Source: Bilabrum cf. latius
Taxonomy: Eukaryota
Reading direction: 5' to 3'
Length of the DNA: 64,000 nucleotides
NCBI GenBank assembly: GCA_965178125.1
Contig: OZ237764.1
Location: 310,001-374,000 of the forward strand
How positions within the stretch are numbered: the stretch's first letter is position 1; each line of letters begins with the position of its first letter. The notes under the pieces were generated by a model. The model saw nothing but the letters and a program-made list of their open reading frames with translations, was not told the DNA's origin and made no database searches. Shown in pieces: positions 811 through 64,000 of this stretch. A program made the translations under genes and the position numbers.

Positions 811-2077
811 ATGGCGGGAACCGGACAGCAAGGAAGTGCCTGGGCTGGTGGTGGACTTGGTAGTGCGGGAGGTGGAATAGAATCTGTATTTGGATCAGAC
901 ACGGCGGGCCTCAGCTCACTGCTCGGTGGTGGAAGCTTTGGCGCCGATGCCGGTGGGGATGCGCAAGGCTGGGATAGCGCACCTGGTGGCGCAGCGGGCG
1001 CTACAACAGCCGGCTCGTCGGTTGTAGGTGGTATTGGCGAGTCATCTCACCAATCTAGTGCCGCCACGGCAAATTCTGGCCCGTCTGGAGATCAGAAGTC
1101 GAACGGCGAAAGCACGCCGACAGCTGGCGAAGACGATTTTGAGCCCTTGGCAATGCCCATGGCATGCGAGCCTATAGGAGAGGATGAAATGCTTAGCATG
1201 CACATGCCAACAACGTTCCCGGACGAGATGCCGTGGTTCGATGGGGTGATGACGCGCGATTCGATTGCGCCGTACTTGCGAGCACGACCATCCGACGACG
1301 AGGTGAGAATATGTTTGCACCCTGGCGAGTTTTAGAACGCATGCTCCGTCTCTCTTATGCCATTAAGTTCTTCTGCCGATGACGAAGCAAGTATTGACGA
1401 TCGATTCTGAGCCCCGCAAGGCCGTGAACGATGCAACTACCTCCTACTCATTCCGAGGCCTGTCTCTTTCTTTACGGAGCGGCTTTGAACCGTCCAATGC
1501 AGAGTCATTGTACCTAACTCCCTGATTAATTGCATCCTGCTGCTCTGTGCACCGCAGATTGCCAAGCATTGGAAGACCAAGCCGAAGAAAACGTACGCCC
1601 CCCCGGGGGCCATGGGCAGCGGGGGCGGAGGGGGCTCCTCCTCTAGTAGGTGGGGCAACTCGGCGCTGGGACGGTCCACGTCTGGGGCCTCGGCGTCTTC
1701 GACGGCTGCATAGCACGGCAGTGCTGGCGGCGCTGGATCCGGGTCTACAGTGTCAGAGCAGCCCAAGTGGCAGCAGGCCACTCGAGCCAACAAGCCCAAG
1801 GGAGGCGGGGGCGGATCCTGGAGGGACCAGTCGGGCGCGTCCACCGGCGTATTTGCGCGACGGGACGAAAGCCGCCAGGACAAGGATGACGCCAAGAACG
1901 ACGACACGTTCGGGGGGGACGCGCTGGGCGGCGGGTCTGACGATGCCACCTTCGGGGGCGGGGGCACCCTGGGCGGGTTCGACCTGGGTGACCTCAGCAA
2001 GGCAACCGCGGCGTTCGCTTCCAAGCAGCAGCTGTCCATGCGAGGGGACGGTGATGGGGCGGCGTCGTCGCAGAGCT

Positions 2078-2108
<31 letters not shown>

Positions 2109-4827
2109 CCATACTGATGCCAGTGGGACAGCGGCTCTGCGTGCAGCGCTTCAGATCGGCGGGGCGGCGGGAAGCAGCCCCGACGGCGCAGCCATGCAGA
2201 CGGCTGCGCCCGCACCAGCCCAGGCACCGGCCCCAGCGCCAGTGCAGCCGCAGCCGCAGCCAGAGCTACACCAGAGTCCCGTGTCCCCTGGCATGGAGCC
2301 TTCGTCGGACGAGCCGCAGTGGTTTTACCAGGACAACCAAAAGGTGCAGCAGGGGCCCTTCGCTCCCTCTGACATGCGGCAGTGGCTGGACGCAAATTAC
2401 TTCAAGCCCGACCTGCCAATCCGTCATGCCAGCTCTCCCGAGGGCGTTTTCGTGGCGCTGCAGGACGCATTCCCATCCATGCAGTCGGCCTTCATCGGCC
2501 TGGGCAGCTTTGCGCCTCCCAGGCGGCCGGAGCACGCCACGGAGCAGCAGCGGCAGGCAGCGCACCAGCAGCTGCAGCAGGTGCAGCAGAACGGGCGCGG
2601 GATTCAGGCCCGGCTGGAGCAGCTCGGTGCTGCCGTGCAGCAGGTTAGGGGCATTCACGCTGGGCTGCAGGAGGAGCAGAGGGCCGACACGCAGCTCGTG
2701 CAGACGTACCGGGCCGGCGCCATGCAGCTGCAGCAGGCCACCGAGGAGGCCCGCAGCCAGGGAGACCAGGGAGCGGTGGCTCGCTGCGACCAGGAGATGG
2801 CGAGCCTCAAGTCGCAGGCAGCGGAGCTGGCCCAGCGCCTGCGCAACCGCAAGGCCCAGCTGGACCAGGCGGTCGCCAAGGAGGCCGAGCTCATGCAGGC
2901 CGGCAGGGCGCTGCAGCAGGAGATGGTGCGGGTCACGCAGGACATCCGTGGCCTAAACCTAGTCATCGAGGGACACTCCCCGGACAGGGCCATGGAGATC
3001 CTAAAGAGCCAGTTGCAGGCCGAGCGGGAGGCCCAGTTGCAGCAGCAGCAGCAGCGCCAGCAGGAGGCGGAGCAGGAGCAGACCAGGCAAGCCGCGGAGC
3101 GGGAGGCACAGGCGCGTGCCGAGGCAGAGTCACAGGCAGCGGAGGCCCAAAAGGCGGCTGAGCGCAAGCAGCAGGAGGAGCTCAAGCAAGCCGAGCTGGC
3201 CCGCCAGCAGCTCCGGGAGACCCAGAGGCAGCAGCAGGAGGAAGAGAGGAGGAGGCAGCGGCAGGAGGCCGAGGCTCGCGCGGCGCAGGCCAAGGCCTAG
3301 TCTGAGGCCGCGAAACAGCGTGCACAGGCGGCCAAGCAGGCGGCGGAGGAGCAGGAGCGGATCAAGGCGGCGGCCAGGGCGAAGCGCGAGGCGGCCCAGC
3401 AGCAGCAGCGGGCTGCGGCCAGCAAGGGCCAGCGAGAGGCGGTGCCCAGCATCTTGAGGATGCAGGAGAGGCAGGAGGTCAGGCGCACGCGCCAGGACGC
3501 AGCCGCAGCCGCCGCGTCCCCCAAGCAGATCGCCGCGGCCTAGGGCGCCGGCAAGCAGCAGATCGGGCAGGCGCGGTCGCCCATTAAGGCACCTGTCATC
3601 CCCGCGGTGGGCAGCAGCGCCAGTACGAAGGGGGCTGCATCCGCCAAGAAGTAGAAGGGCAAGAAGCAGCAGCAGCAGCCGACTGGCACGGCTTGGGATT
3701 CGCCGGTGGCGTCCAAGCCGGCAGCCAAGACAGCCAGGGCAGGGGGCGCCAGGCCGCTGTCCATCGAGGAAGCCATGCGGCAGGCGGAGGAAGAGGCCAT
3801 GCAGCAGAAGCAGGACCAGGAGCAGAAGAGAGAGCTGCTGCAGCAGGCGCACGTCACCCAGGCCAAGATCCACCAGGCGGGATGGGGCGGGGCGGCGGCC
3901 AGGCCGGCCCAGGTGCAGGACCTTACGCAGGTCATGGCTCAGCAGTCCAGGGAGTCGTAGCAGCGGAGCAGCACCGTCCAGACGGCCAGGAGGCAGCAGG
4001 CCGCTCCCAGGACCAGCTGGGGCGCCGCAGCTCAGGCGGGCAAGCCCAAGCCGCTGGACCAGATCGCTGCAGAGCAGACCGCGGTGGCCCATCAGCAGCA
4101 GCAGCAGAGGGCGCACCGGCTGGCGGCGCAGGGCGTGCCGGCTTCCCTTGCCGCCGCCCGAAGCTCCGGGACCGGCGGGGGCAGTGCCTGGGCCCAGAAG
4201 AAGCCAACGGGTATGGCTGGGGTCAAGGCGGGGCGGGGCACTGCCACGGTGACCCGGCTTGGCAGGCCGGCACCATCGTCAGCGGGTTCTGCGGCGCCTG
4301 GGCAGCCCAGGGCTGCCGCTGCGCCTGGGGGTGGTGGGCCCGCTGTGGGAGCGTGGGGCAAGGCTGCCGCTGCGGCGGCACGACCCCCGGCCAGCGCCCA
4401 CGCCCTCGGTGCACCCGCCCCTGCCCCTGCTCCCGCGCCGGCCGCTGCCGCCCAGCCCAAGGGGCCGGGCCTGCGTGCCATGCACCGGGGGCCCACCACC
4501 AAGTCTTCTTCCTAGGAGGCCGGCGCGGGCGCTTCGAGCGGGGGATCCAAGGCTCGCGGGGCGGTGGCTGGCCTGGGAGGCGTGTCCGGCAAGTTCCGGG
4601 ACTGGGCTACGGGGCGCATGAAGGAGATCAGCGGGGACGACCAGGGGCTCCTTTTCGAGTTCATCGTCGCGCTGAGCAGCCCCACCGAAGTTAGAGATTA
4701 CTGCGAGGATTGCCTCGGCAGGTCTCACGCCGTAGACGCATTCGTGACGGAGTTCCTGTCTCGACGAGAGTTTGAAGGCGGGAACGCGCAGCCTGCAGGC
4801 AAGCGCGGCCGCCGGAAGGGGCGCTGA
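811..4827 (+). CDS. GIGYF/Smy2-like GYF-domain protein (~1,250 aa), TAG read as Gln
   Basis: GYF-domain motif WFYQDNQKVQQGPF...MRQWLDANYF (~2320-2420), Gln-rich coiled coil, and a GIGYF-type C-terminal helical region FRDW...FIVALSSPTEVRDY...LG...AFVTEFLSRR. All are in one frame across TAGs at 1711, 2077, 3298, 3541, 3652, 3958 and 4513. Phase-0 intron 1303-1557 (GTGAGA...CTAAC...ACCGCAG). Ends TGA 4825-4827. Start codon uncertain. Confidence 0.85.
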
Positions 4828-5014
4828 ATCCATCCCCGCGACGCTCTCTGTTTGAATAGAAATGGTGCAGGCTTTGCTGCATATAGCCAATACAGCATGT
4901 TTCATCTTGCCGTACCCGTTCACTCGTTCCTTGCCACTAGCATTAGGTTATGCGACCGAACTTCCACAAGCACCTCAACGGCAACCGCGCCGCCTCGAAA
5001 TTCAGATTGCAACC

Positions 5015-7702
5015 ATGCCGCGCCCAAGACCCGCAGGCAGCACGCTGCTCCTCTCACCGGCCGGAAACAAGCCATTGCGCCATTGGTACACCAAAGGACG
5101 GGTGCGGAGGGCATTTGATAGCTCCTGCAAGGGCTTCAGCGTTCAATTACAAGCCGGCTCAGGTTCGTCGATTGAATGGCCCCGGCGGGGCGCGGAGAAG
5201 CCGCACGGGATGCTATCTTACAAAGTATTGCCCTACATGATATTTTGTGCTCGGCTAATCCCCGGCTCGCCCTGTTCACTGTGTGTTCACGTGAAGACAG
5301 GCCGCTTCGGAGCGAGGCGTCGCATTGACCTCACCACTGCTCTAAAGCAATCAAGAATGACGTCTACTGTATCGACATAGGTTCCACTGCGATTTCCTGA
5401 CCGTGCCATGGGCTCATGGGTGTATCTCCTGATCAATGTGGACTCCGTGTGCCGTCGCGCATTTGGGGAGCCTCTGCAGGAAATCAGCGGGGTGTTTGCG
5501 AGCGGTGCCGTGTAGCTGCGATGCGTCGCGGTTATCTCAGGGCACCCAGATACCTATCCCCCACCACTGGATGTCGCAGAAGAAATCAAGCAGCGGTACG
5601 CGAGAGGCGGCGGCGGCGCTTCCGCGAGGCAGCGGCGGGCGCTTGCGGGGTCGAGCACCGCCTCAACTCGGCTGAGGGAGGGGAGGGTCGGGGGCCAGTC
5701 ATCCTCCGTGGGCGCATCGACCCTCTTGGATCGAGCGGCCGCCCTGCCGGTGCCAGAGACCTCGGGCCTATCCCGCTTCCTGGTCACGCAGGAGGGAGCC
5801 CTGTCCGCCATCGAGCTGAGTCTTGGCTCCCAGGGGGTGCACTTCCCCCCCGGGGTGGGGTACCTTGTGGCTCTGCTGGAATCGCCAAAGACCGGGATCA
5901 AGCTGCTCCCGACAGCGGCAGAGCTGGCGGCTCGCGAAGAAGAAGGGGGCAGCAGGAGGGGGCGGACAGCTGGCTTGGGTCCAGGTGGTGCACTCGGTGC
6001 GGGGGGCTTTGGCTCCGGGGTAGACTCCGAGCTGGAGAGAGCCGCCCGAGATTCCCGCGCCGGACTCGCAGGGGACGCGCTAGGTGATCCTGCGCTGGAG
6101 CCCGTGGCGGGTGGTGCCGGGGCTGGAGCGTACATTTCTTCCAAGGTACTGGCTGGCCGTGGGGCTGACATGGGGAGTGGCAGCGGCGCGGCATCCGAGG
6201 CTAGAATGGGCGGCTATCCAATGCGCAGCGTGTATAACTAGCACGACGAGGAAGATGAAGAAGAGCTGGAGGATAGGGTCGCCCGCGCCAGGGAACACGA
6301 GATGCTGGGAACCGGGCCAGGTGATGCGGCCAGGATCGAGATCTAGTCGAGGCGAACCCTTCTGCGATCAAGGGGCGGCGAGGTCCCGCAGCAGGAAGAA
6401 GAGGAGGAGGAGGAGGAGGAGGAGGAGACGCCGCGCAGCGTCGGCGCATCAGCGGGCGACGCAGCATCGGTGCACCGTGCTGCCGATCTTCAGCCTCAAC
6501 CGGAGGGCGCAGATGATGCAGCAGACAAAGCAAGCGGTGCTTCGAATCTAGACGCGGATGCGGCCGAGAATCCGTTCGACGTGTCCCGGTCTCCGATCTT
6601 TCACCTGCTGCAGGCAAAGGGAAAGCAGGCGGATCGAGAGGCGAGCAAGTCAGCGAGCCAGGTCACCCCGGGTGCACGCCACCCCGGTGAAACTGGCGAT
6701 GGAGGCAGGGCAGGAATTTCCTCGAGTGCGCATGGGGAGGAAGAGGGCGATGCACCCACCGGACCCGAGAATACCGCTGATGACACCGTGACTCATGCAG
6801 AGGGGCGGGGCGGCGCTCTTCAAGACGGTGAGCTAGCAGCGCGTGTCAGGGCCCAGGACAGCGGCAAGGGTGGCGTGCCTCAATCTGGTGAGGACCAGGA
6901 TGGAGATGACGTCGGCAAGGATGGAGAGCTCAGTGACACTAGAGGTTCTGGTCATGACACGGTGCCCGCTGCGCTTCAAGGTTCTGCTGCTACTGCTGCG
7001 GCTACTGCTGTTAAGGGACAACCGGGGCAGGATACGACAGGGGTGGACTCTCATCCAGCGAGCCATACGGTCCAGCGCGCGCACCCCACAAAGCAAGGTT
7101 CGGATGAATCGCGGTCCAGTTCTGTAGTGCAGGGATCAGGCAGCACTACCACTGGTAGTGGCACTGTGACGGCTTCGGTTGACGACCTACTTCGGCTGCT
7201 CAACGCTGCCAGACAAGGGACGCGGGGTGGAGGCCACGGAGGTGATGATAGTCACGATCGTGGTGGGCCCATTGGTGGGACAGCTGCGAGCGCGGGTGGA
7301 TAGCAGCAGGGCGGTCAATACTAGGCGTACAAAGGAGCACCTTCAGCTGCATCGGCGGGACCACCGCCAGCAGTAGCAGCGTCATATGATGCGTCAGGAT
7401 CAGGATTCCCAGCGCCTTCAAGACGCAGGGCTGGATCATTGTGGAGCCTTCCGCCGGCTGGCACACCACCGTCGGCGCCGCCTGCGGACTACGCCTAGAG
7501 TGGGGTGCCGCAAGGTCTCGCCGGGGTCCTATTGCGGCAGCAGGCACTGCTGGCCAGGCTCGAGTCGCAGACAGCAGCGGGGAAGCAAGCCCAGGTCGAC
7601 ATTGGATTGCCGACGGTCCGGTCCACCAGAATGCCAAATGATGATCTGCTGGGACTCCTTCGAGTGCGAATTGATGGAAGTAGGGTCTTGAGTGTTGATT
7701 GA
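5015..7702 (+). CDS. CFAP20-domain (DUF667)-containing protein with long low-complexity tail (~895 aa)
   Basis: N-terminal ~190 aa resemble the CFAP20 domain (KPLRHW..KGRVRRAFDSSCKGF...LPYMIF...RRRI...VPL...W..L.I...V.RRAFG). One frame continues across TAGs at 5378, 5513, 6239, 6344, 7301, 7322 and 7496 to TGA 7700-7702. Confidence 0.65.
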
Positions 7703-7814: not shown

Positions 7815-8945
7815 TCAAATACCGTCGTTTTCGTAGCTGTCATCTCCCACGAGTGACATGGCCGCGGTGGTCCCGAATGCTCCCATTGCTCCTCTCTAGG
7901 TGTTCCATACGGCCTCGCCACTCTCCCTTTCGAGCTGTGCCGCGCCGGATGTGGCCACAAATCTGGCCGGCGCTGGATGGAGGATGGACGTCTTGACGAT
8001 CCAGAGGTAGTCCCCTGTCTCGCCATTCACCACGGCCAGATCACCGGTGGCGCTGCACTCCTCCCCCGTCAGTAGCAGCATGCAGTTCTTGCCCAAGTGA
8101 CGGGTATGGCTCGCCCACCAGGCGCCGCTCTGGGACCCATCGTGTTGGTTGTCATACCCGACGAAATTGCAGTCGTCCTGCATCCTGTACTCGAACCTGC
8201 GATCAGGGCTGCGGATGCTGTTTCCTGCTGTAAGTACCTCCCCGAGCTTTAGCTCGCTCCCGGAGGCAAGTGGCCTCTTCTTCACTGCATCTACATCGCA
8301 CTGCCCCTTCGGGGCGTGCTTCTTCCATGCCCGCCGAAGTGCGTTCATCATGTTGCCGTTGCCGTCCGTGTGCTCGCGGCTTGTCGTGGTGAACGTCGCC
8401 CATATGATGTCACCACCCTCCTAGTACAAAATAAGATTCCCATCCCCTTGCAATTCCAGAGAGTCGGCAGGTTTGGCGAGCACAGACCCTGGGACGCGCC
8501 AGATGTATTCCTCCGACTGAGTATCGATTATTGCCAAATCACCCGTCGTACTACAACCGTCACCCGTGATTGTAAGTACGCACCGGCTTCCCCTTCCCAG
8601 GGTATTCGTACTGAATCTAGGTTTGTTGTTGTAGTAAAGGACAAGGTTGCAGTCCTCCTGCATGCGCAGCTCGACTTCGTCATCACCATCACGTTGATGG
8701 AGAGACTACCTTGTCTGCAGGTACCACCCTCTCCACATCTTGTTACCAGATGCGAGATGATAGTACATTTTGGGCTGTTTACACTTGAGCTTATGCAGAT
8801 CCTCGTGTATGAACTCGCCACTCGATTCCTGCCATGCTCTGGCCGCGGAAGCAATACGCGCTCGATTCCGTCGCAGAGCGCTCCGAGCCAATGCTGTATG
8901 CAGACAGGAGTACAATGCCAGTACCGCCAGGATAAATCGCATCAT
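7815..8945 (-). CDS. Secreted tandem bulb-type (GNA-related, B-type) mannose-binding lectin (~376 aa)
   Basis: Signal peptide MMRFILAVLALYSCLHTALA. QxDxNxVxY-type motifs MQEDCNLVLY, LQGDGNLILY and MQDDCNFVGY in two homologous domains. Three ORF-track fragments join in frame across TAGs at 8706, 8421 and 7896. Ends TGA at 7815. Confidence 0.85.
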
Positions 8946-9495
8946 TGTTTTCGAAATCCCCGGAGGCAACAGGTGGCTGCGTGAAGCCAGCGCATTGGGC
9001 ATCTGATGATGAATCGCACTCGTCATGCGTCCCCCCCGGGCCGTGGCGCCGCAGCGGAACTTTGGGTTGTGGCGGAGAGCGCACTTGCCTGAGCCAAACT
9101 TTCGGCTCGGGCAAAAGGCCACATTGCCCAAGCCGAACCATTTTATATCTAAACTGGGTTTGCGACCAACAGGCTGCCGATGGATTTGGCAGCTTCTCTT
9201 TCTTCTCTGCGCACGGCACCAGACGAAAGAGGCACGGGAATCGCAAAACACATGTATCGATCCGTGGAATGATTCAACCGCCTCAGATGCAATCGAAGAA
9301 GCTGGCTGCGGGTCACGGTGGAGAGATGCCAGTGGGGAAAGCAACACCGGCAGCGCGGGAGCCGCACATTGGCAACTTGAAGAGGATCCGCCGGCGCACA
9401 ACCACGGCCCGCTTCAAGGGGATTTTCCATCACAAAATCGGACTGCAGCCAGTCAACACCGAGCAGGGCACGCCTTCCTGAAAGAAGGCGGCAGT

Positions 9496-11185: not shown

Positions 11186-13108
11186 ATGTCCGATAAACCT
11201 AATCCGACCCGCCAATCGGGGACTGGTGCCGACCAGCCACGCCCTCCGTTGGCAGCTGGAGCACCGCCAGCACGTCCAGCCACCGAGCAACATATGGCGG
11301 CAGCACAGCTAGCTCAAATGGCCAGCCTCCGTTAGCAAGAATATGTAGCATAGCCTGGGTATTAGCAATGGTTGTTGCAGCAGCAAATGATGCTTGGAGC
11401 CCAAGCTGGCATGCCAGGATACTAGCAGTATTCAGACGGCACGCTATTTCAGCTCCCTGTGTCTGCTCCGCATTATCACGGCATTCATGTCCACCCAAGT
11501 GCAGGATATGTACTATCTGGGGCCCAAGGGATGTACCCACCGAGTGCTAGCGGTATGCAGTACGAGTATGGGTCGCAGGGCGCAGCGCAGTATGTGGGTG
11601 GCTAGGGGCGTGGGAACCAAGGTCGGCCGTTGGCAGTAGGGAGTCACAGGCAAAGGGAACCCGATGTTAATACACTCCACGCTAGGGAATAGCGGCCTAA
11701 GACCAGCACCGTTTCCGATGGAAGGGGGAAAGGGGAGTCAGCGGCGGTGCCCGGAGATGCGCGGCTTCATGAAATACCATCAACTGCTGCCGCTGCTGCT
11801 GCCGTGTCTAGTGTTTGGGCCTCACAGAGCTAGGCCCCAGTGAAACTTATTATTTCGAGCAAGGCGGTACAGCTCGCGAGGGAACACAGCCAGGGGCAGG
11901 GCGCCAGAACAATTCCAGCAGGACAAGCGGTCCGGGTGTCTGCAGGTAATTCTGATGCCGGATCACGACAGGGAGCCAAAACGACGATGGAAGCGAATTC
12001 GTTTGCTCCCAAGCGGGCACCAGTGCCTAACAGTGTACCCCTGGCGTCAGGCAAACGTACCCAACAAGCCTAGGCACATGGCAAAGCATCAATATCGGGC
12101 AGCGTATCGTCGGCCGGAGCTGGCGCCAGCGCGAAAGCGCCCGTGGTTCGTGCTGCCAGCAGCAGCGATAAATTACCGAGTCTCACAGACTCCAAACGCA
12201 GCTCGCGGGCGAGGGCAGGCGTGCAGCCCGCAGCTGCCACGACAAAGTCCTCGAGCGCCGCGGGGGCCGCCGGCCGCCGCTCGTCCCGGTCCTCCCGTTC
12301 CTCTGCACAGGGCTCGAGCGCGGGAGACGAGGCCTCGCAGGAGGGCAGCATGGGTCCCGCTATCAGCCTGAGCAGCCTGCCTCTACCAGACGGTGTGACG
12401 AGTGAAGTGCTCCTCCCCGACGATCCAGACGGCCACCTGTCCCGCTGCTTCCTATCGCGGCAATCCAACAAGAGCAACCTGAAGCGCATCGTCAAGGTAG
12501 GCTACACGTTCCAGGTGTTCGATGACCCGCCAGACGCGGGGGAGCACCCCGGGTACTCGGGCGCTTCTGCCCCCTTCAAGCCCATGGGAGTCAGAGAGGT
12601 GTACGAGCGTGTGGAGCGGCGGGCGGCCCGCATGTCCAAGCAGGAGATCGAAGAGTATGAGCCGGTGGATGATGACCTCGCGACCGTGGCGGACGTATTC
12701 CGCGCGCTCAACAGCATCTGGGTGGCTCGAGTGCGGTACCACGGGCCCGGGACTCAGGTCGCCGAGCTGGCGCTGCAGGCAGCGAGGGAGAGCCTGGCCA
12801 AGTACACGGAGTGGGAGCACTCCTTCCTGGCGTGCGACGAGGAGGACAAAGAATACTGCGTGGTGTGTGGGAGCGGGTCCTCTCGAGGGAACAACGAGAT
12901 CGTGTTCTGCCCCAAGTGCGGGTGTGGGCGGCACCAGCGGTGCGGGGGACCGTCCACAGTGCAGACTGAGTGGTTCTGCAAGGGCTGTGCCGGTGAGGTG
13001 GCGAGGCTGAGACGGGAGGGCGAGCCAATCCAGTGGAGGAGGCCGTTTGAGGTGCACATGGTGCCTGTGGACAGTACAATGTAGGGGGCGAGCGCTTCAT
13101 CCAGCAGT

Positions 13109-13139
<31 letters not shown>

Positions 13140-16100: not shown

Positions 16101-16930
16101 CTGATGTGGCGCATGCATCGACCGGCCAAGGAAGGTCGTCGGGTACAGCCCCAGGCGGTGGCGAGCCGGACTCCAAGCGTCGTAGGGTAGACGGAGAGGC
16201 GACGGGGCAAGCTACTGCCCGCGCAGGTGGTACATCCAGCGATCGGACCGAGGCCGGTTTCACGGACGAGTCGTTCAGCCCGACCGAGATGCAGCGGCAA
16301 GAGGCGCAGAAGCTGGCGCTGACTCTACTGCAGCACCACGAGCAGGACTGGAAGAACTGGCAACGGGCCCAGGAGGCCATTGCAAAGGAAGGAGATGGGA
16401 CCATCGTTACGCTTGGTGAGATCAAGCTCGGCGTGGCGGTCGGGCGGATCATGTAGGCCACCCACCTGACCATGCGGCAGAAGCTGAGCAGGCTGCAGCG
16501 ACTCAACGAGGCGATCGTGGCGCAAACTGAAGTGCCGCATTCTGTGGCTCCCCCAAGGCCAGAGGCCATCTCCGCGCAGCTCCTTGCTGACCTAAAGAGC
16601 GCTGCCAACGTTCCTGTGGACAGTCCCAGCGGCCCGGGCGGCGAGGCTGCTGGATCAGCTCCTCACGGAAGCAACAAGAGAGGTGGGATCGGATAGACTA
16701 GCAGCGACAGCTCAGCCTCTGGAGCGGACGAATCCAGCCACGTCGATGTTGGCGAGCACGGTGGAGCGGGCAGCCCCTCGGCCCCATCTTCATCTTCGGC
16801 TGGGGGCGCGGGGAGCGAGGCTGTGAGCAGTAGCGGTGAGGGTGAGGGTAACAACGGCGGTGTTGAGGGTAACAGCGGCGGCCCCGGTGGAGCCTCTGGA
16901 CAACAGCCAATGGGGGATGTTGCTAATTGA
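11186..16930 (+). CDS. Large PHD-finger protein (~1,914 aa)
   Basis: PHD finger YCVVCGSG...EIVFCPKCGCGRHQRCGGP...EWFCKGC (~12855-12990). A single frame from ATG 11186 to TGA 16928-16930 is broken only by ~16 TAGs (e.g. 11831, 12071, 13082, 15188, 15824, 16454, 16694). Q/P/Y-rich N-terminus and poly-Ser tracts. Confidence 0.8.
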
Positions 16931-44079: not shown

Positions 44080-44235
44080 AATCCCGCGCATTTGAAAGAC
44101 TTGGCTCTGTATCTTCGGGTTAAAGAGGGAAAAGTGTGAATCAAGATTAAGAACGAGAACAAAGTTTCATGGATCTAGACTCTACTAGCGCTTCTTTCTG
44201 TACAGACGGAAAGAGAGAAAATGTAAGGATGCAGC

Positions 44236-51500: not shown

Positions 51501-51701
51501 ATCGTGGAGCCGCCACCGGGGACCATGCTGCCGGCTGCACTCCGGGGGTCGGGTTAGGGGTCAGCTAGAAACGATGGGAAGAACCGTGGGGGCGGTGGAG
51601 ATAGGAGAGGTGGTAAGGGTCGTGGACGTGGTAGGGGGCGGGGCAGGGGCAGGGGCAGGGGCAGAGGTAGGGGCAGGGGCAGGGGCGGAGGGAGACGTTA
51701 A
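48579..51701 (+). CDS. PUS10: tRNA pseudouridine synthase Pus10 with insertions and a C-terminal RG tail (~1,040 aa)
   Basis: N-terminal CxxC pairs (CGPC, CPVC), VFIRGRYLKLARGISQSPW, catalytic GREDRDVRMLGRGRPF, QLTPVRVLHRR, and AGTYVKEFVHGDMGRTAP...LDV. Seven in-frame TAGs. Ends TAA 51699-51701. The frame is also open upstream to ATG 48252. Confidence 0.9.
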
Positions 51702-51929: not shown

Positions 51930-54900
51930 ATGCGAAAATTCTCAATAGATGATATACTCAAGCATTTCGAGGCTGGAACTGGCCAGGACGTGCTCAGTCT
52001 GGCAATTCGTCAGCTACGATCGGATGCGAGGAAGCCTGCAGTTGAGCAGCGTGGGATCATCGGGTAGCCCGGTGGGGTTATTTGTGTGCAGTCTACCGAG
52101 GATGGGTACACGGTACTGCATTCCATTGCGTTCGTCGATGCACTGGTGGCGGCCAGGCAGGTGTTCCATTGGGTTGATGCAAACCTTGACGACGCGAGCA
52201 AAGGAGCGGTATTGGACAGCACCTGGTAAGCAAGCTTGAGTGTTTGCTGCGCTTTGCGTGCATTGCTATTGAAAGCTCCCGATTGTAGGAGGGATGTGAA
52301 TCTGCGAGTGGTGATGCCATCTCTTACCTGCTTGCACACACGTCGAGAAAAGTGGTTCCCGGGCCCGTGGCTACAATTCTGCGGTTGCACCGGGCTGATG
52401 CACCGCCCATGACCAGAACTGCGACGCAATGATTCGATGAATCTAAATGTTACTATTTCGCGACTGGCCTCAATAATTTCCGCAGCTCCAAGGGCGAGAC
52501 CCCGCTCGTGATCGCCGCCACGCGAGGCAACGAGCAGATGGTCAGGTTGCTGCTTGCTGCAGGGGCTAATCCCAGGGGTGCACCCGCTGGCCGTCCGAGC
52601 GCTGCCCGCGTTGCCATGAGCAGGAATCACCACGCGGTCGCTCGCATCTTGCTGAACCTGGGCCCGGAGGACGAGCTGCCCATGTGCCCCGTGTGCTTCG
52701 ATGTCGCCGATGAGACCCTGGTCCGCTGTGGGCACAGGCTGTGCGTCAAGTGCGCGCAGACATGCGTCGAGACGTGGTTGCAGTCCAAGGACGAGACCCC
52801 GCTGCGCTGTCCTCACCACGGCTGCGACACCGCTTTCACCGATGCTGAGCTGGACCTGTTCTGCCACCACCCAGTGCTGCAAAGGGAGCTGGACGACAAG
52901 AGGCTGAGGGTTGCCCTCAGGAGCATGCCCGATTACGTGAACTGCCCCCACTGCGATGCCGGTGGAATCTACCCGAGTAGCCTCGAGGCCGGGCTGGCCC
53001 AGCCCTCGGCCGCTGGGGCTGCCACTGGCGGTGCGGCTGCCCTCGAGGCGTCCGCTTCCAAGGACTCCTCCGCCAGAGCAGAGGGTGTGGGCTCCGGCCC
53101 CATGCTTGAGAGCAAGGGGGCGGTGGCGGTGACCAAAGGGACTGATGCAGCCAGAGCCACTGCTGCAGGTGCTGAGGCTGAGGCTGCGGTGCCCAGTGCC
53201 TCTCCTGAGTCGGTGTGCCTGGACTTGTATTGCCCCCGTGGTCACCACTTCTGCAGGGGATGCAAGATGGGGGCGCACCCAGGACTGTCGTGTGACGAGT
53301 ATAAGGCCACAGCGGTGTGCAAGGACGAGCTGGCCAAGATGAACGGGGCCAAGCCGTGCCCTGGGTGCGGCTCGTTCACTTACAGGTCCGGCGGGTGCAG
53401 TCACATGACCTGCCGGAGGTGCCGGAAGGAGTGGTGCTTTCTCTGCGGAGGGGACTATATTGGACACTACGTGATGAGTGGCGACAAGTGCGCCTGTGCT
53501 AGCATCAGGACGCGCAGGCGCAGGCAAGAGCTGGGCTCCGGTGACGCTTCTGCTCGTGGTCTCGCGGCTGCCTGGGCTGGCCTGGCCTCAGGTGGCACTC
53601 CCGCAACACCGGCGCCGGGTGCCGCAGCATCAGGCGCGGGCACTGGTGAAGCAGCTGCGCCGGAACCCTAGCCTCGAACAGAGCGTGAGCCCATTCGAAC
53701 GAGCCCCGTCGTGACGGTCGAGGTTCCATCTAGTGCTGGCGCAATTCCCACGGCTGCCTACACCCTGGACACACCCACCGCAGCAATGGGGTCGGCTCCA
53801 ATGCCCGAGGCAACGCACATTGCAACCGGTGACAGGGTACTCCGTCGAGATATGAGGGGTTTGCATAGCGCGTACCGTGCCCGGTAGCCGTCTGGTGCTG
53901 CCGCGAGCACCCGTTCGACTGGCACGATGGGGCCTACTCCGTCCTCTCCATCGAGTGGTGCACCTCCTACCTCTATGGCAAGGGCAGAGCCGCCCACAGA
54001 CGTCGATGCAGCCCTGGCATCCATGCACAGGGATCGTGATCGTGCGGCTCTCAGGGCTCGAGGGGATCGACGCAGCTCTGCCCGGGGAACCAGGCACCTT
54101 GCCCAGCAGCAGTACAGCGACTACCTGGCGAGCTCCTCGAGATCTTGGCAGGATGCTTTGTCGCCCCGTACCAGCCCCGGGATCACCATCGAGCGTAGTC
54201 GCCGTTCTCGTGATACCCCTGCTGGACGTACACCTCCTCGAGGGGTGGCAGCCGGTGTGCACCCGCGAGTTGCAGCCCGGGAGTACCCCAAGGATGCGGT
54301 TGACTCTCGGCCGCGCGGTGGTCGTGATTTCTCTCGCGCCGAGCCGAGTCCACGGTTGCCAGGCCACAGGCGAGAGGTGCGCGCAACACACCGGCGTCAC
54401 CCTGAGCTAAGCGCTGCGGATCGACGGGCGGCACTTGGCACAAGAATGCAACTGCGAAGGTCGGTCGATGCTGCAACCAGAACGCCAACTGGAAGCAGCC
54501 GCGAGCGCGAGAGCAGCCGCAGGCATGCTGGCCGCGACGAGGCAGAACGCTCGCGCCATGGGGTGCTGGGTAGAAGGCCCGCAGCACGCCGAGCAGCGCA
54601 AGTTTCCTCTGCTACAGAGCCCGCCCCGCGTCCCGAAGGCCTCCACAGGCGTCGAGCAGAGTGTGGGAGTGGGTCTAGGCACTGGACCATGATACGGGAG
54701 AGGGTGCGACGGGGCGGGGCAGTCGAGGCAGGTGTAGGGGCTAGCACCACCGGTGCCAGAGCCGCTGGAGGGAGAGGCTCACGGGATGCGCGTCAGCAGG
54801 CTAGGACAAGTACCGGCGCTTCTACCCGATCTGACAGATCCCGAGCTGCTCCAGCAGCCGCCGAGGAGAGAACGTTTTGGCAGCGACCCGTCCGTCGCGA

Positions 54901-55102
54901 CCGTAGAGTCGTGCAGGCGAGGCCTAGGAAGGCAGGTAGCGTGCGCGGCAGTCGTCGGATCCTTGAAGAGGCCATGGAAGAGGTTGATCGGGAGGCTTGG
55001 GTACTAAGGCACAGGGAGGACAGCGTCAGCCATACACGCGGTTACTCGCGAGCAGCGCAGCCGGGACCACGGGCAGCAGAGGTGAGGGCCAGCCTCCACT
55101 GA
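51930..55102 (+). CDS. Ankyrin-repeat RBR (RING1-IBR-RING2) E3 ubiquitin ligase (~970 aa)
   Basis: Ankyrin motifs GYTVLH and GETPLVIAATRGNEQMVRLLLAAGANP. RING1 CPVC...CGHRLCVKC...CPHHGC, split IBR, and RING2 CPGC...GGCSHMTCRRCRKEWCFLC. Intron 52226-52485. Three TAGs; Arg-rich tail; ends TGA. Confidence 0.85.
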
Positions 55103-55248: not shown

Positions 55249-58200
55249 TCAGGCACAAATCAAGTCAAATTCATAGCTGCCGCCACCAAGCTGCATGCCG
55301 GCCACGAGATCAGGCTTTCCCTGTGCTCCCAGATCACGCCCAAGCGAAGCGGCTAGTACAGCCGCGCGCGGCCCAAACAGAACATCCCACCGGCCGCATC
55401 GAACCGTCTGAACGCTGGCAAATGGCGCAACCATGGCTGAGCTGCACTGTCCTCCCTATCCGCTGGTCCGCTCCAATACACTGCAGGACTCCATGGAGCT
55501 GACCGGCGCGATCACGCGCGCCTTGGTGCCCAGAGGCACGGTGACCTGCACCCGTGTCACCGTCCCGGCTCCATCCTCGCTCTCCTGCGGCAGAGGCACA
55601 GACACGTTGGCCCGCACTATGCCCCTCGCCATCGTCCTCGAGCTGCTGACCCACTGCACGCCCACCAGGTCTGGCCTGGGTGCCACCACCACCTGCCCCC
55701 AGGGGTCCACGGCCGAGTCATCCACCGGCCGGATGCCGCCAATGCCCGTGTAGGCAAAGCTCACGGAGCCTCCGAACATGATGTGCGCCCAAGAACCGTC
55801 AGCATAGGACCCATTCTAGTACGATCCGAACCATCGCTCCCAGATGGTGCTTCCCCCCGTGGTGGCCATCCAGTAGTAGGAAGGCAGGGCCGTCCTGGTC
55901 AGCACCTGGGCCGCTTCCTCCTCGAAGCCCTCGGTCTGCAGCACGGTTGTGAGGACAGCTGCACCCACCACCCCGGTCTGCATCGCGTAGTCGGTATCGA
56001 CTACGCTTTGCTTCAGCACTGCGGCAGCACGCTGCTTCTCGGTCGGGTCCTGAAGGACACCGAGCCTTAGGCTGATCGACTGCGTGGTCTGCAACGGTGG
56101 CCTGAAATTCACCGCGTGAGGGGTCTTGGCGGGCAGATCAGGATCCCTGAACTGGCCTGTTGTCTGATTATAGAAAGCATCATGGTACGACAGCCGCAGC
56201 TGAGTTGCAAGCTTCCCGTACTTTGCCTCACTGGGTGCGTCATTCATGGCGTGAGCCGCGCGAGTCACGGCGTCCAGACCCATGCCGAGATAGTACGAGT
56301 TGAGGGGGTTGGAAATGTGGTTGCAGCCGAGATCGCTCGGCTCGTTCCACCCGCACCAGTCACCATTGTTGGTCCCCGGGTAATTCGTGTGCAACAGCCC
56401 GGTACTCTGGTTGGTGAACCCCAGCAGCAGGTCAACGTAGTCCTTCACGCCCTGGTAGTGCTCCTTGAGGATGCCCCTGTCGCCGTAGTGGCGCCAGGCG
56501 TAGTCGTATATCAGCGGATAGGCGCCGCCCCATGCCGTGTCAGAGTAGTACTTGCCCGACACACTCAGGAAGATGGAGGGCTCCATCTAGCCGATCGATC
56601 CGTAAAAGGCGGCGTGGGTCTGCGACTGCCGGATATCGGTGAGCCATTTCCTGTAGGGGGCCTGCATGTCGAAGGCAGCCGCCATGAAGAGGAGAGCCGC
56701 CCCGCTATCTCCCATCCAGCCCCGCTTCTCTCTCGTGGGACAGTCCGTGGGGATGGACATGAAGTTCAGCACGCCAGATGCACGGGTGGCGTTCACCACT
56801 CGGGTCAGGGCATACCCCGCACTCACGGCGCTCTGGTCCGATGCCGAGGCATCCTCAAGCTCGGGCCCCAGCTCCAGCTCGGAAGCGTTCTTCAGGTCTG
56901 TGTGGAAGGACAGGCACTTGAGCACGGGGTTGGACTGGGAGGGCGAGGGGCCCTGCCACCCCTCTACCCCGATGTACCGGTAGCCAGTGTACATGAAGCG
57001 GTTGGGCACCACGGGAGGGTCCAAGCCCGGGTCACCTGCGCACTCATACCGGGCCATCTGCTGCTCCCTGCCGCCATGCTTGCGGTCAGGCACCGTGGGT
57101 GTGGGCATCACGGTGCCATTGTCGTACAGCGTCTCAGCATAGATGGTCTTGACCACCGTGCCGGCCGTGCACCAATCGGACCCGCTGGCAGGACCACCAG
57201 TTCCCGCACCATCAGCATCTGCCTCGGCCCGCAGCACCAGCATGCAGTGTCCAGAGACCTCCCTCCCCGCGTCAAAGACCAGCTGGCCCTGGTCCCCTCT
57301 CCTCCCCAGAAACTCGGGGAAGAGAGTCTCCTGCACCCGGATGGGGGGCTCCTGCGTCACCGCCATGGCTCCAGTGGGCCCCGGCAGCTTGTCCGCCGCC
57401 CGCCACTGCGTCCCACCTGGGTTGAACCCCTTCTTTGTCCACCCCGGAGTGGCCCTCAAGCCGCTCCTGAACTCGCCCAGGTGCATGTCGTCCTCGATAA
57501 GGTCACCTGCCCCCAGCCGGGCGTCCTGTGCCCGTGAGATGGCCGTGCCGTTCGCCGATGGGTTCTGGGTCTGCCACTGGATGGCAAATCTGACCATCCT
57601 CGGCCCCTGTGGCATGGGCATAGGAGGGTTGTAGAAGTAATCGTTCCAGATGGCCCACCACCACCGGCCCATCTCGAATGCAAGCGTGACCCTGGAATCG
57701 CCCACCGGAGGGCTCCCCGCGCCATCGGTCCCTGCCAGCGCCTGCTAGAGCGCCTCTGTGCAGTCGATCACGTCGTACAAGGTCCTGTTCCTCCATTCCG
57801 TCACAGTTGCGTGCACCTCGTCTGGGGCAAGGGGCACGCCGCCCAGCCAGCCAGCGTAGGCGCCCAGACCTGAGACGAAACAGGACGCATGCTGCAGAGT
57901 TGCGCCTGCCGGTATGTTTAAATCAATGTCAAAGAGCAGCTGGGACGCGCTGCTTTCCGGCATGGAACGGTTGGTTACTGCGTTTCCCACCCACTCGGCA
58001 CCGTTCCAATCCTGCTCGGTCAGCAGTCCCGTTCGGAATTCCGGTCCGTCAGCGTACGGGCTGGGAGCATCTGAGCCGGCGGAATCGACCCAAATACGCG
58101 CCTACCACACGTATCGACTGCTAGAAAGGAGTGGTTCCCCGCGGTACTGGATCCAGCTCATCGGAGTCTAGGGATTCACCTGGAGCTTGCCTGAGTCCCA

Positions 58201-58443
58201 CGTCTGCAGGTCAGACGATTCACCCCAGGCACGAAGCGCGACGACTATCTGTATCGCGGTAATATTTGCACCCCAAAGAGCGGTCTGGGAAGGGGCGGGG
58301 CTTCCAACTGAGAATGACGGAGCGGAATCGACAGCAACGGGCTCGGCGGAGCCTTGGACCCTAAGATTGACAGGAGCAGGCGGCACCATGACGGCTGCTG
58401 CATAGCACATGCTAATCAGCATTGTTCCAGCTTGTGAGACCAT
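55249..58443 (-). CDS. Alpha-L-rhamnosidase, GH78 (~1,064 aa)
   Basis: WDSGK...YRGEPLLSSSRYVW*ARIW, SGLGAY, FMYTGYRY, IPTDCPTREKRGWMGD, STIWERW and SWAHIMFGG. The ORF pieces join in frame across six TAGs; ends TGA. Confidence 0.9.
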
Positions 58444-60360: not shown

Positions 60361-62328
60361 TCAAACCTTGATCGTGACATCGGCCCCCTGCTGCCAGTCG
60401 TACATGGACACCGTCGCAGATCCCTTCTTGCCACCTCCCGAGGCGTCCTCTACCGTCACCTCGTAGTCGCCCAGGAACCCACGGACCTGAACCGTCCCGT
60501 CCTCGCTCGTCACACCGGTCGCGTTTGTCCACCACTGGTTGAACACGAGGTCCCGCCAGCGGTAGTACCCGGGCTTGGGCACGTAGACATCTGGCTCCGG
60601 GTTGGAGAACAGCGGCCCGCTGTGCCTCCAGTGGAACTGGTCCGCGAATCCCCACATCAGGAAAGACTCCACCCCCGGCACGGAGAAAGCCGCCGTGAGG
60701 TAGTCAGCCAGATGGTCCCCGTACAGCTCCAGGTCCGTCTGCACCACGTCGTATTCAGTGACCCTCAGGGGAATGCCCCCCCACCCGGGGGCACCCTCTC
60801 CGGGGGCCAGCGACTGCATGCATCGCAGCACTGCCTCCATCGCCGGCATGCCCCACTCGAAGTGGCTCTCCAGCCCGAAGAACGTCATGGCTTCATTAGG
60901 CCCGCCCCCCTGGGCCTTGATGGCCGCCTGGATGGCAGGCAGCTTCTCCTGGTAGAATGGGAGCCTACCCGCCCCGAACACGCTCGAGCACACGTCGTCG
61001 TCGTTTAGGCCCGTCCCCGCCTTGGGGTCACCCTGCGCCGCCAGACGCATCCAGTGGGCCACGGTCCCGACCGGGTCACCAGACTTGTCCTGAATCAGAT
61101 TGTTCGAGTAGATCTCATTCGCGACGTCCCATTCTAGGGACTGGCCGCCGAACTGGGCGAGGCGGGCACGCGTCCCGCTCGTCTCGTTGATGACGTGCTC
61201 GTTCGCCCGAGCAAGTGCTTCGGCGGACTTGTTGGCGTTCACGAGAGCGCATACGTCCTTGGGGAGCCAGCGGCAGCTGTCCCAGACTAAAGAATGGGTC
61301 CTGATCACGTGCCGTGACTTGTTGGCGTTTAGATGCAGGTTGTTGTGCATCCATTCGAACACTTCAAAGGTCTGGTTCTCCACCTTGGAGTCCGGGCCTT
61401 CCTCCCAGCCCCACCAGTCGAACCCCGATTCCATCACGGCGGCATTGAAGTTGTCTTTGAAGATCCGAAAGTACTCGTTCGTCGTGTTGCCGTAGTGGTC
61501 GAGAATCCCGGTGCTCATGAAGCAGCCAAACCGGAAGTAGTGCCCTTGCATGTCGGCGGAGACCCTGGCCCCCTGCACGGGCTGGCCGGTGCTCTGGTCC
61601 ACAACGCGCACCGTCAGGTCGCCCTTCCGATACTTTTCGATGCGCTCTGCGGCTGCGCTGCGCCAGGGCGCGTCTTTGGCCCTGCCGCCGTACGTAAAAC
61701 CGGAAGAAGGGAGGTCGAAAGGGGTGGGCGTGCCTTGCCCCTGCCCGTAGTTGCGGACCTGCAGCCCGCTCACAGCGATCACCTGGCCTTCGAACGGCAC
61801 GCCAACGTTGGTGTTGTACTGGCATGGAGTCGATTCAGAGCACTCGGTCTCGGCGGAAATCGCAAATCGGACCGGGGTCCAAGTCGCGTTGACCATCGGG
61901 ATGTCCATGGACTGGTAGCCCGCGTACGTGTTGGCCTGCTCCATGATGACCTGCGCGCCCGCGCCAAATGTCTCGTTGCTCTTAATCACCTTGACCTGCA
62001 CCTCAAACCCAATCGTGTCTCCCTTGGCAACCGGGGCGCTGGTTTGCACCGTAATGGTGGCTTTGTATATAAGTGGCGCTGGAGCTACGGTCGTTACCTC
62101 TAGCCCAGCCAAGCCGGAGCTGTTGTCCCATTGAAATGTAACGTACTCGGGTTCTCCGTAGTAGTGGGCGTACTTGTATCCGTCCTCTACGATTGTCTTG
62201 TACGGATAGCTGAGCCACGGATCCGGTGACGGTGTGCCGCCCAAAGTGCCAGACATGCAGGAGGCAGCAGCAAATACTGCAGGTAGAATATGCCACATGC
62301 ATTTCGAACGATAGTTTGAGCATATCAT
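60361..62328 (-). CDS. Secreted GH10 xylanase-like glycoside hydrolase with N-terminal CBM-like module (655 aa)
   Basis: Signal-like N-terminus, AAERIEKYRKGDLTVRVVD, HSLVW, acid/base WDVANE, nucleophile RVTEYD, FLMWGF and C-terminal VRGFLGDYEVTV. No TAG; ends TGA. The start may be ATG 62298. Confidence 0.85.
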   Translation of the reverse strand: MICSNYRSKCMWHILPAVFAAASCMSGTLGGTPSPDPWLSYPYKTIVEDGYKYAHYYGEPEYVTFQWDNSSGLAGLEVTTVAPAPLIYKATITVQTSAPVAKGDTIGFEVQVKVIKSNETFGAGAQVIMEQANTYAGYQSMDIPMVNATWTPVRFAISAETECSESTPCQYNTNVGVPFEGQVIAVSGLQVRNYGQGQGTPTPFDLPSSGFTYGGRAKDAPWRSAAAERIEKYRKGDLTVRVVDQSTGQPVQGARVSADMQGHYFRFGCFMSTGILDHYGNTTNEYFRIFKDNFNAAVMESGFDWWGWEEGPDSKVENQTFEVFEWMHNNLHLNANKSRHVIRTHSLVWDSCRWLPKDVCALVNANKSAEALARANEHVINETSGTRARLAQFGGQSLEWDVANEIYSNNLIQDKSGDPVGTVAHWMRLAAQGDPKAGTGLNDDDVCSSVFGAGRLPFYQEKLPAIQAAIKAQGGGPNEAMTFFGLESHFEWGMPAMEAVLRCMQSLAPGEGAPGWGGIPLRVTEYDVVQTDLELYGDHLADYLTAAFSVPGVESFLMWGFADQFHWRHSGPLFSNPEPDVYVPKPGYYRWRDLVFNQWWTNATGVTSEDGTVQVRGFLGDYEVTVEDASGGGKKGSATVSMYDWQQGADVTIKV

Positions 62329-62481
62329 GGCGGCACTTGTGTCTTCTGACCCGCCGCAGTTCTTGCAGGAATCGGTTCAGTTGCAGTTGGGCTCGTGCGC
62401 GGCTGCCCCGGGCCAACGGTTCCGCTGGCACCGCGTCGGTTGGACCGCGTCATTTCTCGTGCTATTCTAGAAATACTTCGA

Positions 62482-64000
62482 ATGCGTCAGTCCATTCTAT
62501 TCTGTCTTGCCCTGGTACCGGCACTATCTGCGTAGGCTCAAATGGGATTCTGGGTCGACCCGGAGGGCAGCGACGCCAACCCTGGCACCTAGTCTCAACC
62601 TTTCAAGACGCCGCAGCATGCTCAGCAGGCAGTTCGCAAGGCCATAGCATCTGGAATGTCTTCCAATATTACGGTGACGATGGCAGCAGGCCGCTACCTC
62701 CTGAACACTTCGCTGGCACTTGGCCCGGAAGACTCTGGAAGGGACGGGTACGTTGTGAGGTGGATCGGGGCTCAATCAGGACTGCCTTGGTGCCGCGTGC
62801 CGCCATCAACGCGTTTGAACAGCACTTTTACTGGTTTCCTGGCGACCGGATCCTCCCAGTGGGCAGCATCCTGCGACCAGCGGGACAAAACGAACGCGAC
62901 TGTTCTAAGCGTAGGTATCCCGGTCCAATCCTGGGAGCCGCCCGCGGCGGGGTCCAAGGCTTGGACCGGCAAGCTTCCATCGGGCAGTACCCCGCTGACC
63001 AGATTCCCGTCGGATCTTGCCGACTCGCTCGGTACTGTCCGCACACGGGCGCGCACCCCTGACCTTGGCCAGTTCTTCGTGTGGGCTGACACCGTGTGCA
63101 AGAACGTTCGCGAACCTCCGTGCACCCAGTTGGCCCGCCGCGGTTTCGTCTATGCCCCCGGGTAGGTCCCTGACTCCTTCTCCCAGCCCCAGCACACGCG
63201 GATGGTCCTGTACCACGGATGGACCGACAGCTCCCACTCAGTGAAATCTGTATTTCCGGGAAACCGCACGGTACTCCTGACGAACCCGGCCGATCGTCCC
63301 ATCGGCTACTGGCCCAACCACGATAGCGAAGGCGGTGGCAGGTATTTCTACGAATCGCTCGAGTCCCTGGACTCTGGAGGCGAATGGTACTTCGACTGGG
63401 AGGGGCAGCAGCCCCTATACATCCCCGAGGCCAAAGACGAGGACCCGAACGACATGGGGTTCGTGCTGAGCGGCAGCACTGAGGTCATTACGATGGAGGG
63501 GGCGCACGACATCGAGATTGACGGCATCTCTGCCAGACACGCCTCGTGGCACTGCGACTACGAGGGGCAGCAGGTGTGCGACAGGCAGAGCACAGCATGG
63601 CAGCACTACGCCGCCATCAACATCGGAGTGGGGTCCAGGCGGGTCGCCGTGCGGAACACTGAGGTGGCGGGCAGCGGGGGTCCGGGCGTCTGGGCCTCTG
63701 CCAACGTCAGCGGTGTGACGATTGAGGGGTGCAGCATCCACGACCTGGGTGGAGGTGGGATCCGGGTCGGCTTTGACAACGCTTTCCTGTCGGGCTATGA
63801 AAGGGCAGCGGCTCAGGATTCCCACACTTATGGCGAAGCTGCGAACAGCTACTCCCATGAGATCCAGGAGCTGCGGGCGCGTCTCCTTTCGGGCAACGTG
63901 TCAGCCGACTCGTACTGCCACGGCAAAGGCAGTGGGCTGGCTGCGTTGTCAGACTTCGACCGTCAGTCCGCCCTGGCCCTTGCTGCCGGGATGCCGCCAC
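62482..64000 (+). CDS. Secreted right-handed beta-helix glycosidase, GH141-like (partial, runs off the window)
   Basis: Signal peptide MRQSILFCLALVPALSA|*. Motifs VDPEGSDANPGT*SQPFKT...GRYLL...LGPEDSG, RARTP, RYFYESLESLDSGGEWYFD and beta-helix IHDLGGGGIRVG. TAGs at 62533, ~62590 and 63163. Confidence 0.78.

Follow-up and report, generated by a model that had tools for sequence, protein, structure and literature searches.

Evidence for a nuclear genetic code with UAG read as glutamine in a GC-rich, probably stramenopile protist

The present work deals with the use of the triplet TAG in a 64,000-nucleotide stretch of DNA, hereafter called the window, which corresponds to positions 310,001 to 374,000 (forward strand) of contig OZ237764.1 in the assembly GCA_965178125.1, deposited as Bilabrum cf. 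latius; all coordinates given below are counted from the first letter of the window. An initial annotation of this DNA had proposed that TAG is a sense codon in its genes, whereas TGA and TAA are kept as stops. The window, with a G+C content of 62%, contains a set of 17 supported gene models, 16 of which are complete, and a total of 94 in-frame TAGs is spread over 14 of them, the three TAG-free genes being those of the GH10-like, MSS51_C and IF4E types. Three doubtful open reading frames (ORFs), each terminated by TGA, add 10 TAGs and bring the number to 104 in all. The earlier figures of about 100 TAGs in 15 genes were essentially right and are replaced by these counts. The genes are intron-poor rather than intron-free, since three introns with GT..AG borders were seen by means of spliced contigs.

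Unless otherwise indicated, all the genes of the window are closed by a TGA triplet. On the plus strand, the first gene encodes a GYF-domain protein of 1071 amino acids (1612..4827, 7 TAG; Pfam GYF, 6.4e-14), followed by a CFA20-domain protein of 946 amino acids (4862..7702, 7 TAG, two of which are located within the domain; Pfam CFA20_dom, 1.7e-07). A lectin-like gene of 403 codons with 3 TAG occupies the minus strand (7815..9026) and shows a weak B_lectin match below the Pfam cut-off. It is followed by a long low-complexity protein of 1914 amino acids with a weak PHD finger match (11186..16930, plus strand, 16 TAG), an MSS51_C-domain gene of 275 codons devoid of TAG (17010..17834, minus strand; Pfam MSS51_C, 2.3e-16) and an RSN1_7TM membrane protein of 1775 amino acids, resembling calcium-dependent channels (17958..23285, plus strand, 6 TAG; Pfam, 4.2e-08).

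The centre of the window is occupied by a giant HECT ubiquitin ligase of at least 4431 amino acids, counted from the ATG (24549..37844, plus strand), which contains 22 TAG, two of them in the HECT domain (Pfam HECT, 1.7e-50). A spliceosomal GT..AG intron of 148 nucleotides lies in the 5' part of the gene (24252..24399, plus strand). The frame is open upstream of this intron (23690-24251), and a MIB/HERC2-like motif spans the splice junction; the protein is therefore longer than 4431 residues, with its true start situated upstream. On the minus strand, an EF-hand gene of the calcineurin-B-like type (38133..39064; Pfam EF-hand, 4.7e-15) is interrupted by two introns (38487-38572 and 38749-38853) and possesses a single TAG at 38591-38593. 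The HECT and EF-hand genes converge on the segment 37845-38486, and one contig from the sequencing run X5 (see below) spans both of them, so that their 3' ends must be very close or overlapping.

Downstream of this pair, a GT61 glycosyltransferase of 806 amino acids (39135..41555, plus strand, 7 TAG; Pfam, 9.2e-10) precedes three minus-strand genes, namely a gene of unknown family of 802 codons (41683..44091, 5 TAG), a TPR-repeat protein of 845 amino acids (44236..46773, 1 TAG; Pfam TPR_12, 1.9e-19) and an eIF4E-like gene of 202 codons without any TAG (47085..47690; Pfam IF4E, 9.6e-09). The Pus10 tRNA pseudouridine synthase (1149 amino acids; 48252..51701, plus strand, 8 TAG; Pfam Pus10_C, 5.5e-67) is the sole gene ending in TAA. 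Next to it comes an ankyrin plus RING/IBR ligase of the RBR type, recognized by Pfam (854 amino acids; 52538..55102, plus strand, 2 TAG). A GH78 alpha-L-rhamnosidase of 1064 amino acids (55249..58443, minus strand, 6 TAG; Pfam Bac_rhamnosid6H, 2.3e-57) is further documented by PDB matches and by 108 homologues. The GH10-like glycosidase (655 amino acids; 60361..62328, minus strand, no TAG; Pfam, 1.6e-11) and a beta-helix gene of the pectate-lyase-like type, incomplete at the edge of the window (62482..63999, plus strand, 3 TAG in its visible part), complete the series.

Three of these genes, the GH78, GH10-like and beta-helix genes, form a group of adjacent carbohydrate-active enzyme genes (55249-63999). 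The named matches of the GH78 protein are mostly bacterial or metagenomic, its best match being a malawimonad transcript with 28% identity, and a bacterial acquisition of the group is possible. Another peculiarity concerns the CFA20 gene, whose 3' end (7250-7702, plus strand) has a partial second copy at 10214-10704 on the same strand. The copy and the gene share about 96% identity over some 440 nucleotides, apart from one deletion of about 55 nucleotides, and differ at one codon which reads TAG in the copy and CAG in the full gene. Finally, in several overlapping frames between 9480 and 10270, a unit of some 40 residues recurs at least three times; a tandem repeat in the DNA is suggested here, in the interval from the lectin-like gene to the duplicated CFA20 fragment.

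Pfam domains belonging to 13 families fall within TAG-containing frames, i.e., GYF, CFA20, B_lectin and PHD (both weak), RSN1_7TM, HECT, GT61, TPR, Pus10_C, Ank plus IBR/RING, GH78, beta-helix and EF-hand. In the HECT, GH78, CFA20 and GT61 proteins, TAGs are located inside the domains themselves, and the alignments to the PDB structures of HECT and GH78 domains cross the TAG positions without interruption; for these two, the previous remark that TAGs occur within domains which must form one polypeptide is confirmed. The HECT alignments reach the C-terminus of the window ligase, in which the usual spacing separates the catalytic Cys from the end of the domain, immediately ahead of the TGA.

Read from stop to stop with the standard code, the window yields a longest ORF of 757 amino acids and 6 ORFs of at least 500 amino acids. 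With TAG taken as a sense codon, the longest ORFs extend to 4523, 1918, 1777, 1157, 1112 and 1064 amino acids and the number of ORFs of at least 500 amino acids rises to 18. As controls, the same operation performed with TAA leaves the longest ORF unchanged at 757 amino acids and, performed with TGA, the commonest stop triplet of the window, gives a longest ORF of at most 978 amino acids. At the rates observed off frame, a run of 4523 codons with neither TGA nor TAA would arise by chance with a probability of about 3e-39. A sample of 14 ORFs comprising 17,220 codons was used to compare the three frames. In frames 0, +1 and +2, respectively, TAG occurs 93, 98 and 115 times, TGA 0, 260 and 319 times, and TAA 0, 48 and 48 times. 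The similar counts of TAG in and off frame indicate that this triplet is not avoided in frame, while the complete absence of in-frame TGA and TAA, already noticed in the initial annotation, is partly built in by the delimitation of the ORFs by TGA and TAA. Over the same 17,220 codons, no frameshift was found. These figures bear on the idea that the code is unchanged and that the TAGs result from pseudogene decay, errors in the assembly, overlooked introns or U-to-C editing of the RNA. In favor of this idea no evidence was found, and a general decay should have brought a comparable number of in-frame TGA and TAA; the idea is scarcely credible, taking into account also the sequencing runs and the related organisms considered below.

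An explanation of another kind would retain the standard code and an unchanged eRF1, and rely on a highly efficient read-through of UAG by the near-cognate tRNA-Gln(CUG), with no suppressor tRNA involved. Such a reading of stops by tRNA-Gln has been described in organisms with a canonical code, according to PMC13192750, and the window contains no tRNA gene which could be inspected in this respect. Nevertheless, the 22 in-frame UAGs of a single protein would demand a nearly full decoding at each site, and TAG, equally frequent in and off frame, never acts as a terminator. Taken together, these facts amount effectively to a reassignment, whichever tRNA is involved, and a read-through of this type under the standard code is unlikely.

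The uncoupling of TAG from TAA follows from the codon counts. TAG accounts for 10% of the glutamine codons, and the ratio of CAA to CAG is 139/675 = 0.21. If TAA also encoded glutamine with the same CAA/CAG bias, the 93 TAGs should be accompanied by about 19 TAAs in frame, against none observed (P of about 5e-9). The window thus departs from a UAR=Gln code of the NCBI table 6 type. As for the terminators, the 16 complete models end 15 times in TGA, once in TAA (Pus10) and never in TAG. The initial annotation had counted 17 complete genes, 16 with TGA and one with TAA; its statement that none ends in TAG stands, with both totals lowered by one. UGA is the main stop and UAA is a stop, both being retained, and the proposal of a sense TAG together with stop TGA and TAA is borne out by the ORF lengths, the controls, the codon counts and the terminators alike.

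A dual meaning of UAG could nevertheless be imagined, with glutamine inserted within the genes and a context-dependent stop at some gene ends. Context-dependent stops have precedents in Condylostoma, in karyorelict ciliates and in Blastocrithidia, where UAA is concerned. The terminators examined number only 16, and the B_lectin, Pus10, RSN1_7TM and GH78 genes have a TAG 30-70 codons before their annotated end, a situation in which the sequence by itself cannot tell a stop from a read-through. Against this stand the absence of TAG among the 16 terminators and the coding appearance of the sequence beyond the last TAG, e.g., in the GH78 gene, where the frame remains open for 69 further codons, and in the Pus10 gene, where an in-frame tail of Arg-Gly repeats follows the last TAG. 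A dual meaning is accordingly held to be improbable, although somewhat less so than the other explanations weighed here against a plain reassignment of UAG.

The stretch, or part of it, is contained in nine sequencing runs from five studies, none of which is recorded as RNA. Four of these runs from four studies (X5, X6, X8 and X9) were compared with the segment 24001-44000. Contigs of X5 and X6, which belong to two studies, join position 24251 to 24400 and thereby skip the 148-nucleotide GT..AG gap of the HECT gene. Contigs of X5 skip in addition two CT..AC gaps (38487-38572 and 38749-38853), which correspond to the minus-strand introns of the EF-hand gene, while X8 is contiguous through all three gap sites, with the introns retained. 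Since they show three intron-shaped joints and a depth that is strongly uneven from gene to gene, X5 and X6 are read as transcript assemblies. Over 24400-38486, X5 has no differing letter; every one of the 22 HECT TAGs, as well as the single EF-hand TAG on the minus strand (38591-38593), appears unchanged in its contigs. Removal of the introns restores continuous reading frames and takes out no TAG site, the three canonical introns being the sole joints encountered.

These spliced contigs, which keep their TAGs, argue against a splicing-out of TAGs, and U-to-C editing is excluded if X5 and X6 are RNA. Transcripts lacking the TAGs, which the initial annotation had named as an observation contrary to its proposal, were not encountered in the contigs so interpreted. 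In the pieces listed for X5, X6 and X8, which come from three further studies, no difference from the window occurs, and the differing places per run amount to 1, 1 and 5, respectively, over 20 kb; this agreement of three further studies with the window argues against an assembly error. The same DNA occurs in the runs X1-X8 of four studies bearing four different organism codes, and it is possible that this organism lives in association with others or is catalogued under their names. All the runs bearing the sequence are dated 2024-2025, so that the data producers may already be aware of the phenomenon. The run X9, for its part, contains a relative whose DNA is about 90% identical to that of the window, with 1914 per-site differences from it over the compared segment.

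The nature of the amino acid inserted at UAG was approached by comparison with relatives. When short proteins matching the HECT ligase were searched for over its whole length, five ORF fragments of a close relative, 93-97% identical to the window, were retrieved, and a sixth fragment falls in Pus10. These fragments cover 12 of the window TAG sites, where the close relative exhibits Gln 8 times, Lys twice and Ser twice. Conversely, the five distinct ends of its fragments, i.e., its own TAG-like stops, all face glutamine codons of the window (CAG 4, CAA 1). A scan of metagenomes yielded two loci, one of which, L002, belongs to an unrelated HECT protein with 31% identity. The other, L001, is a contig from a more distant relative with 68% protein identity and a G+C content of 61%, which contains 6 TAGs and neither TGA nor TAA among 583 in-frame codons. 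Facing these 6 TAGs, the window shows CAG 3 times and otherwise CGT, TCG and CTG, whereas at the 2 window TAG sites covered by L001 the latter shows CAG and GTT, once each. One relative was found in a run labelled 'algae metagenome'. In-frame TAGs are thus a trait which the organism shares with at least two relatives, with about 90% DNA identity for the first and about 68% protein identity for the second; these relatives carry them at positions other than those of the window, which weighs against an unchanged code.

Pooling the two relatives and both directions, glutamine is found in 17 of 25 comparisons (binomial P of 1.5e-16 against a glutamine background of 5.3%). With substitution probabilities derived from BLOSUM62, the log-likelihood is -48.6 for Gln as compared to -69.2 for Glu, -69.9 for Lys and -76.0 for Ser, a gap of 20.6 between Gln and the next residue. 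The decoding of UAG as glutamine, as initially proposed, is supported by these sequence comparisons. Another amino acid would have its best candidates in Glu, Lys and Ser, two of which recall the ciliate PL0344 (Glu) and Scotinosphaera (Ser), and some data lean in this direction: the 8 comparisons devoid of Gln comprise S 3, K 2, R 1, L 1 and V 1, mostly in stretches judged by eye to be locally variable, and in distant homologues the columns facing TAG tend towards Lys/Arg and Asp/Asn. In GH78 (108 homologues), 3 of the 6 TAG sites are well occupied and display K/R, R/K and D/N; out of 8 sites in Pus10 (149 homologues), one is well aligned and displays R/K/H. These distant columns appear compatible with a polar residue and too variable to name Gln, and are regarded as uninformative. 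The PDB alignments similarly show mixed residues at the TAG sites, and among 12 HECT orthologues Gln comes out as the most frequent residue at 2 of 6 TAG sites, a weak indication. In the face of the 17 glutamines, of the log-likelihoods and of the five fragment ends that all meet glutamine codons, a residue other than Gln is very improbable. This holds for leucine too, the residue of the table 16 pattern of the rhizarian exLh type, which occurs in 1 of 25 comparisons.

The exchange between TAG and its synonyms deserves a separate mention. Over the final 1079 residues of the HECT protein alignment between 34600-37844 and the fragment P0261, 6 TAGs occur in the window and none in the 97%-identical relative. 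At five places, a CAG or CAA of the window is matched by a TAG-like stop in this relative. A rapid exchange of TAG and CAG between close relatives is suggested by these comparisons.

Among the nuclear codes already described, those separating UAG from UAA amount to a handful in PMC11687900 and PMC5304391. According to these sources, UAG alone is reassigned in Iotanema (Gln), in the rhizarian exLh (Leu), in Scotinosphaera (Ser) and in three phyllopharyngean ciliates from TARA (Leu), whereas the ciliate PL0344 reads UAA as Lys and UAG as Glu; the ciliates Protocruzia tuzeti, Hartmannula sinica and Trochilia petrani are listed with UAG=Gln in the former (PMC11687900). The cases cited in the initial annotation, Iotanema and phyllopharyngean ciliates, agree with this list, to which the two sources add exLh, Scotinosphaera and Protocruzia. 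The closest likeness is found with Iotanema spirale (Fornicata), a non-ciliate protist for which UAG=Gln, with UAA and UGA as stops, is reported in PMC5304391. Iotanema is a metamonad, whereas the organism of the window is probably a stramenopile, and the 'scarcity of UAG codons' mentioned for Iotanema in that paper contrasts with the share of TAG among the glutamine codons of the window. Hartmannula, Trochilia and Protocruzia, according to PMC11687900, similarly combine UAG=Gln with UAA kept as a stop; they are ciliates, in contrast to the window with its stramenopile-grouped Pus10 and HECT ligase, its GT..AG introns and its high G+C content. The exLh, TARA and Scotinosphaera codes, which likewise have UAG as the only reassigned codon and UAA as a stop, differ by the residue, Leu or Ser (3 of 25 comparisons for the latter) instead of Gln. 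Table 6 organisms, among which are many ciliates, ulvophycean green algae, Hexamita, Streblomastix and Amoeboaphelidium protococcarum, share the passage from stop to Gln, but TAA is also Gln in them, contrary to the window where TAA is missing in frame and closes one gene. A code with UAG alone read as Gln is therefore already known as a type, from Iotanema and Protocruzia, and the lineage seems to be new.

With respect to the identity of the organism, no rRNA gene occurs in the 64-kb window and two protein markers were used. In a FastTree phylogeny of Pus10 with 149 representatives, the window protein falls in a 5-member clade (support 0.93) together with Tribonema minus. The enclosing clade of 24 members (0.93) comprises six named ones, Tribonema, Pythium, Lagenidium, Hondaea, a MAST assembly and Vitrella, i.e., five stramenopiles and one alveolate; Klebsormidium is situated outside. 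The HECT ligase has 14 full-length relatives. All six strong named ones are stramenopiles (three Phytophthora, Peronospora, Cafeteria and Saprolegnia), the remaining named matches being two weak animal HECT proteins. The Pus10 tree and the HECT orthologues suggest that the organism is probably a stramenopile, of a class not resolvable from the window, in accordance with the earlier impression of a non-ciliate protist. An aphelid resembling Amoeboaphelidium was also considered, owing to the relative from the 'algae metagenome', Amoeboaphelidium being an algal parasite in which TAG and TAA are reportedly both read as Gln; it was rejected because Amoeboaphelidium reads TAA as Gln too and because the markers stand apart from fungal relatives. 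No nuclear code change was found for stramenopiles in the literature covered, which left out most subscription journals and supplements and mentions organellar changes only.

The mechanism of the change can be outlined from the codon itself. An anticodon CUA is alone in reading UAG without reading UAA, so that a tRNA-Gln(CUA) is expected, together with an eRF1 which no longer competes at UAG. A dedicated tRNA-Gln of this type, one anticodon change away from tRNA-Gln(CUG), would decode UAG and leave UAA unread, whereas eRF1 would have lost its affinity for UAG while keeping the recognition of UAA and UGA. Both parts have an analog in Iotanema, for which PMC5304391 predicts a tRNA-Gln(CUA) and a weakened contact of eRF1 with UAG, with a changed GTS motif in eRF1.

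Taken as a whole, the data very probably represent nuclear DNA from a protist with few introns and a high G+C content, most likely a stramenopile, in which UAG encodes glutamine while UGA, as the main stop, and UAA terminate translation, a pattern corresponding to NCBI table 15. Some points weigh against this interpretation or restrict its reach. Besides the 8 comparisons without Gln and the GH78 and Pus10 columns discussed above, the small set of 16 terminators leaves room for rare UAG stops. The RNA nature of X5 and X6 is deduced from their joints, and the run typing, itself a guess, gives X5 as 'probably DNA'. The placement among stramenopiles comes from two single-gene results, with the alveolate Vitrella inside the same Pus10 clade. 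On the side of the mechanism, the tRNA and Rfam scans of the 64-kb window returned no tRNA and no Rfam family, and the eRF1 gene does not lie within the window. Finally, the fragments of the relatives provide no rate of TAG turnover, because the search favors long ORFs free of TAG. An independent origin of the UAG-only Gln code is plausible, and the suggestion of an independent and possibly undescribed origin made in the initial annotation keeps this status, unproven in view of a placement drawn from two genes and of a partial coverage of the literature. We lean, with some reserve, towards the more ambitious proposal that this would be the first nuclear code change among stramenopiles, an independent origin of the UAG-only Gln code, in a genome of 62% G+C and in a clade sampled so far through at least three organisms, namely that of the window and the two relatives.

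Changes of the nuclear genetic code are rare, and a separation of UAG from UAA is rarer still. A probable independent origin in a major group without a known nuclear variant offers a data point on the sole capture of UAG, and a GC-rich non-ciliate contrast to the AT-rich cases. In practical terms, gene callers using the standard code fragment the proteins of this organism, as illustrated by the public protein collection, in which the 4,400-residue ligase of its relatives is present only as pieces of 200 to 1084 amino acids; consequently, the annotation, the completeness estimates and the metagenomic binning of the clade will be wrong until table 15 is applied. Should the proposal hold, AT pressure would not be expected to have driven TAG to disappearance in a genome of such a composition, and the clade, with its exchange between TAG and CAG, would represent a natural system for following the spread of a newly captured codon.

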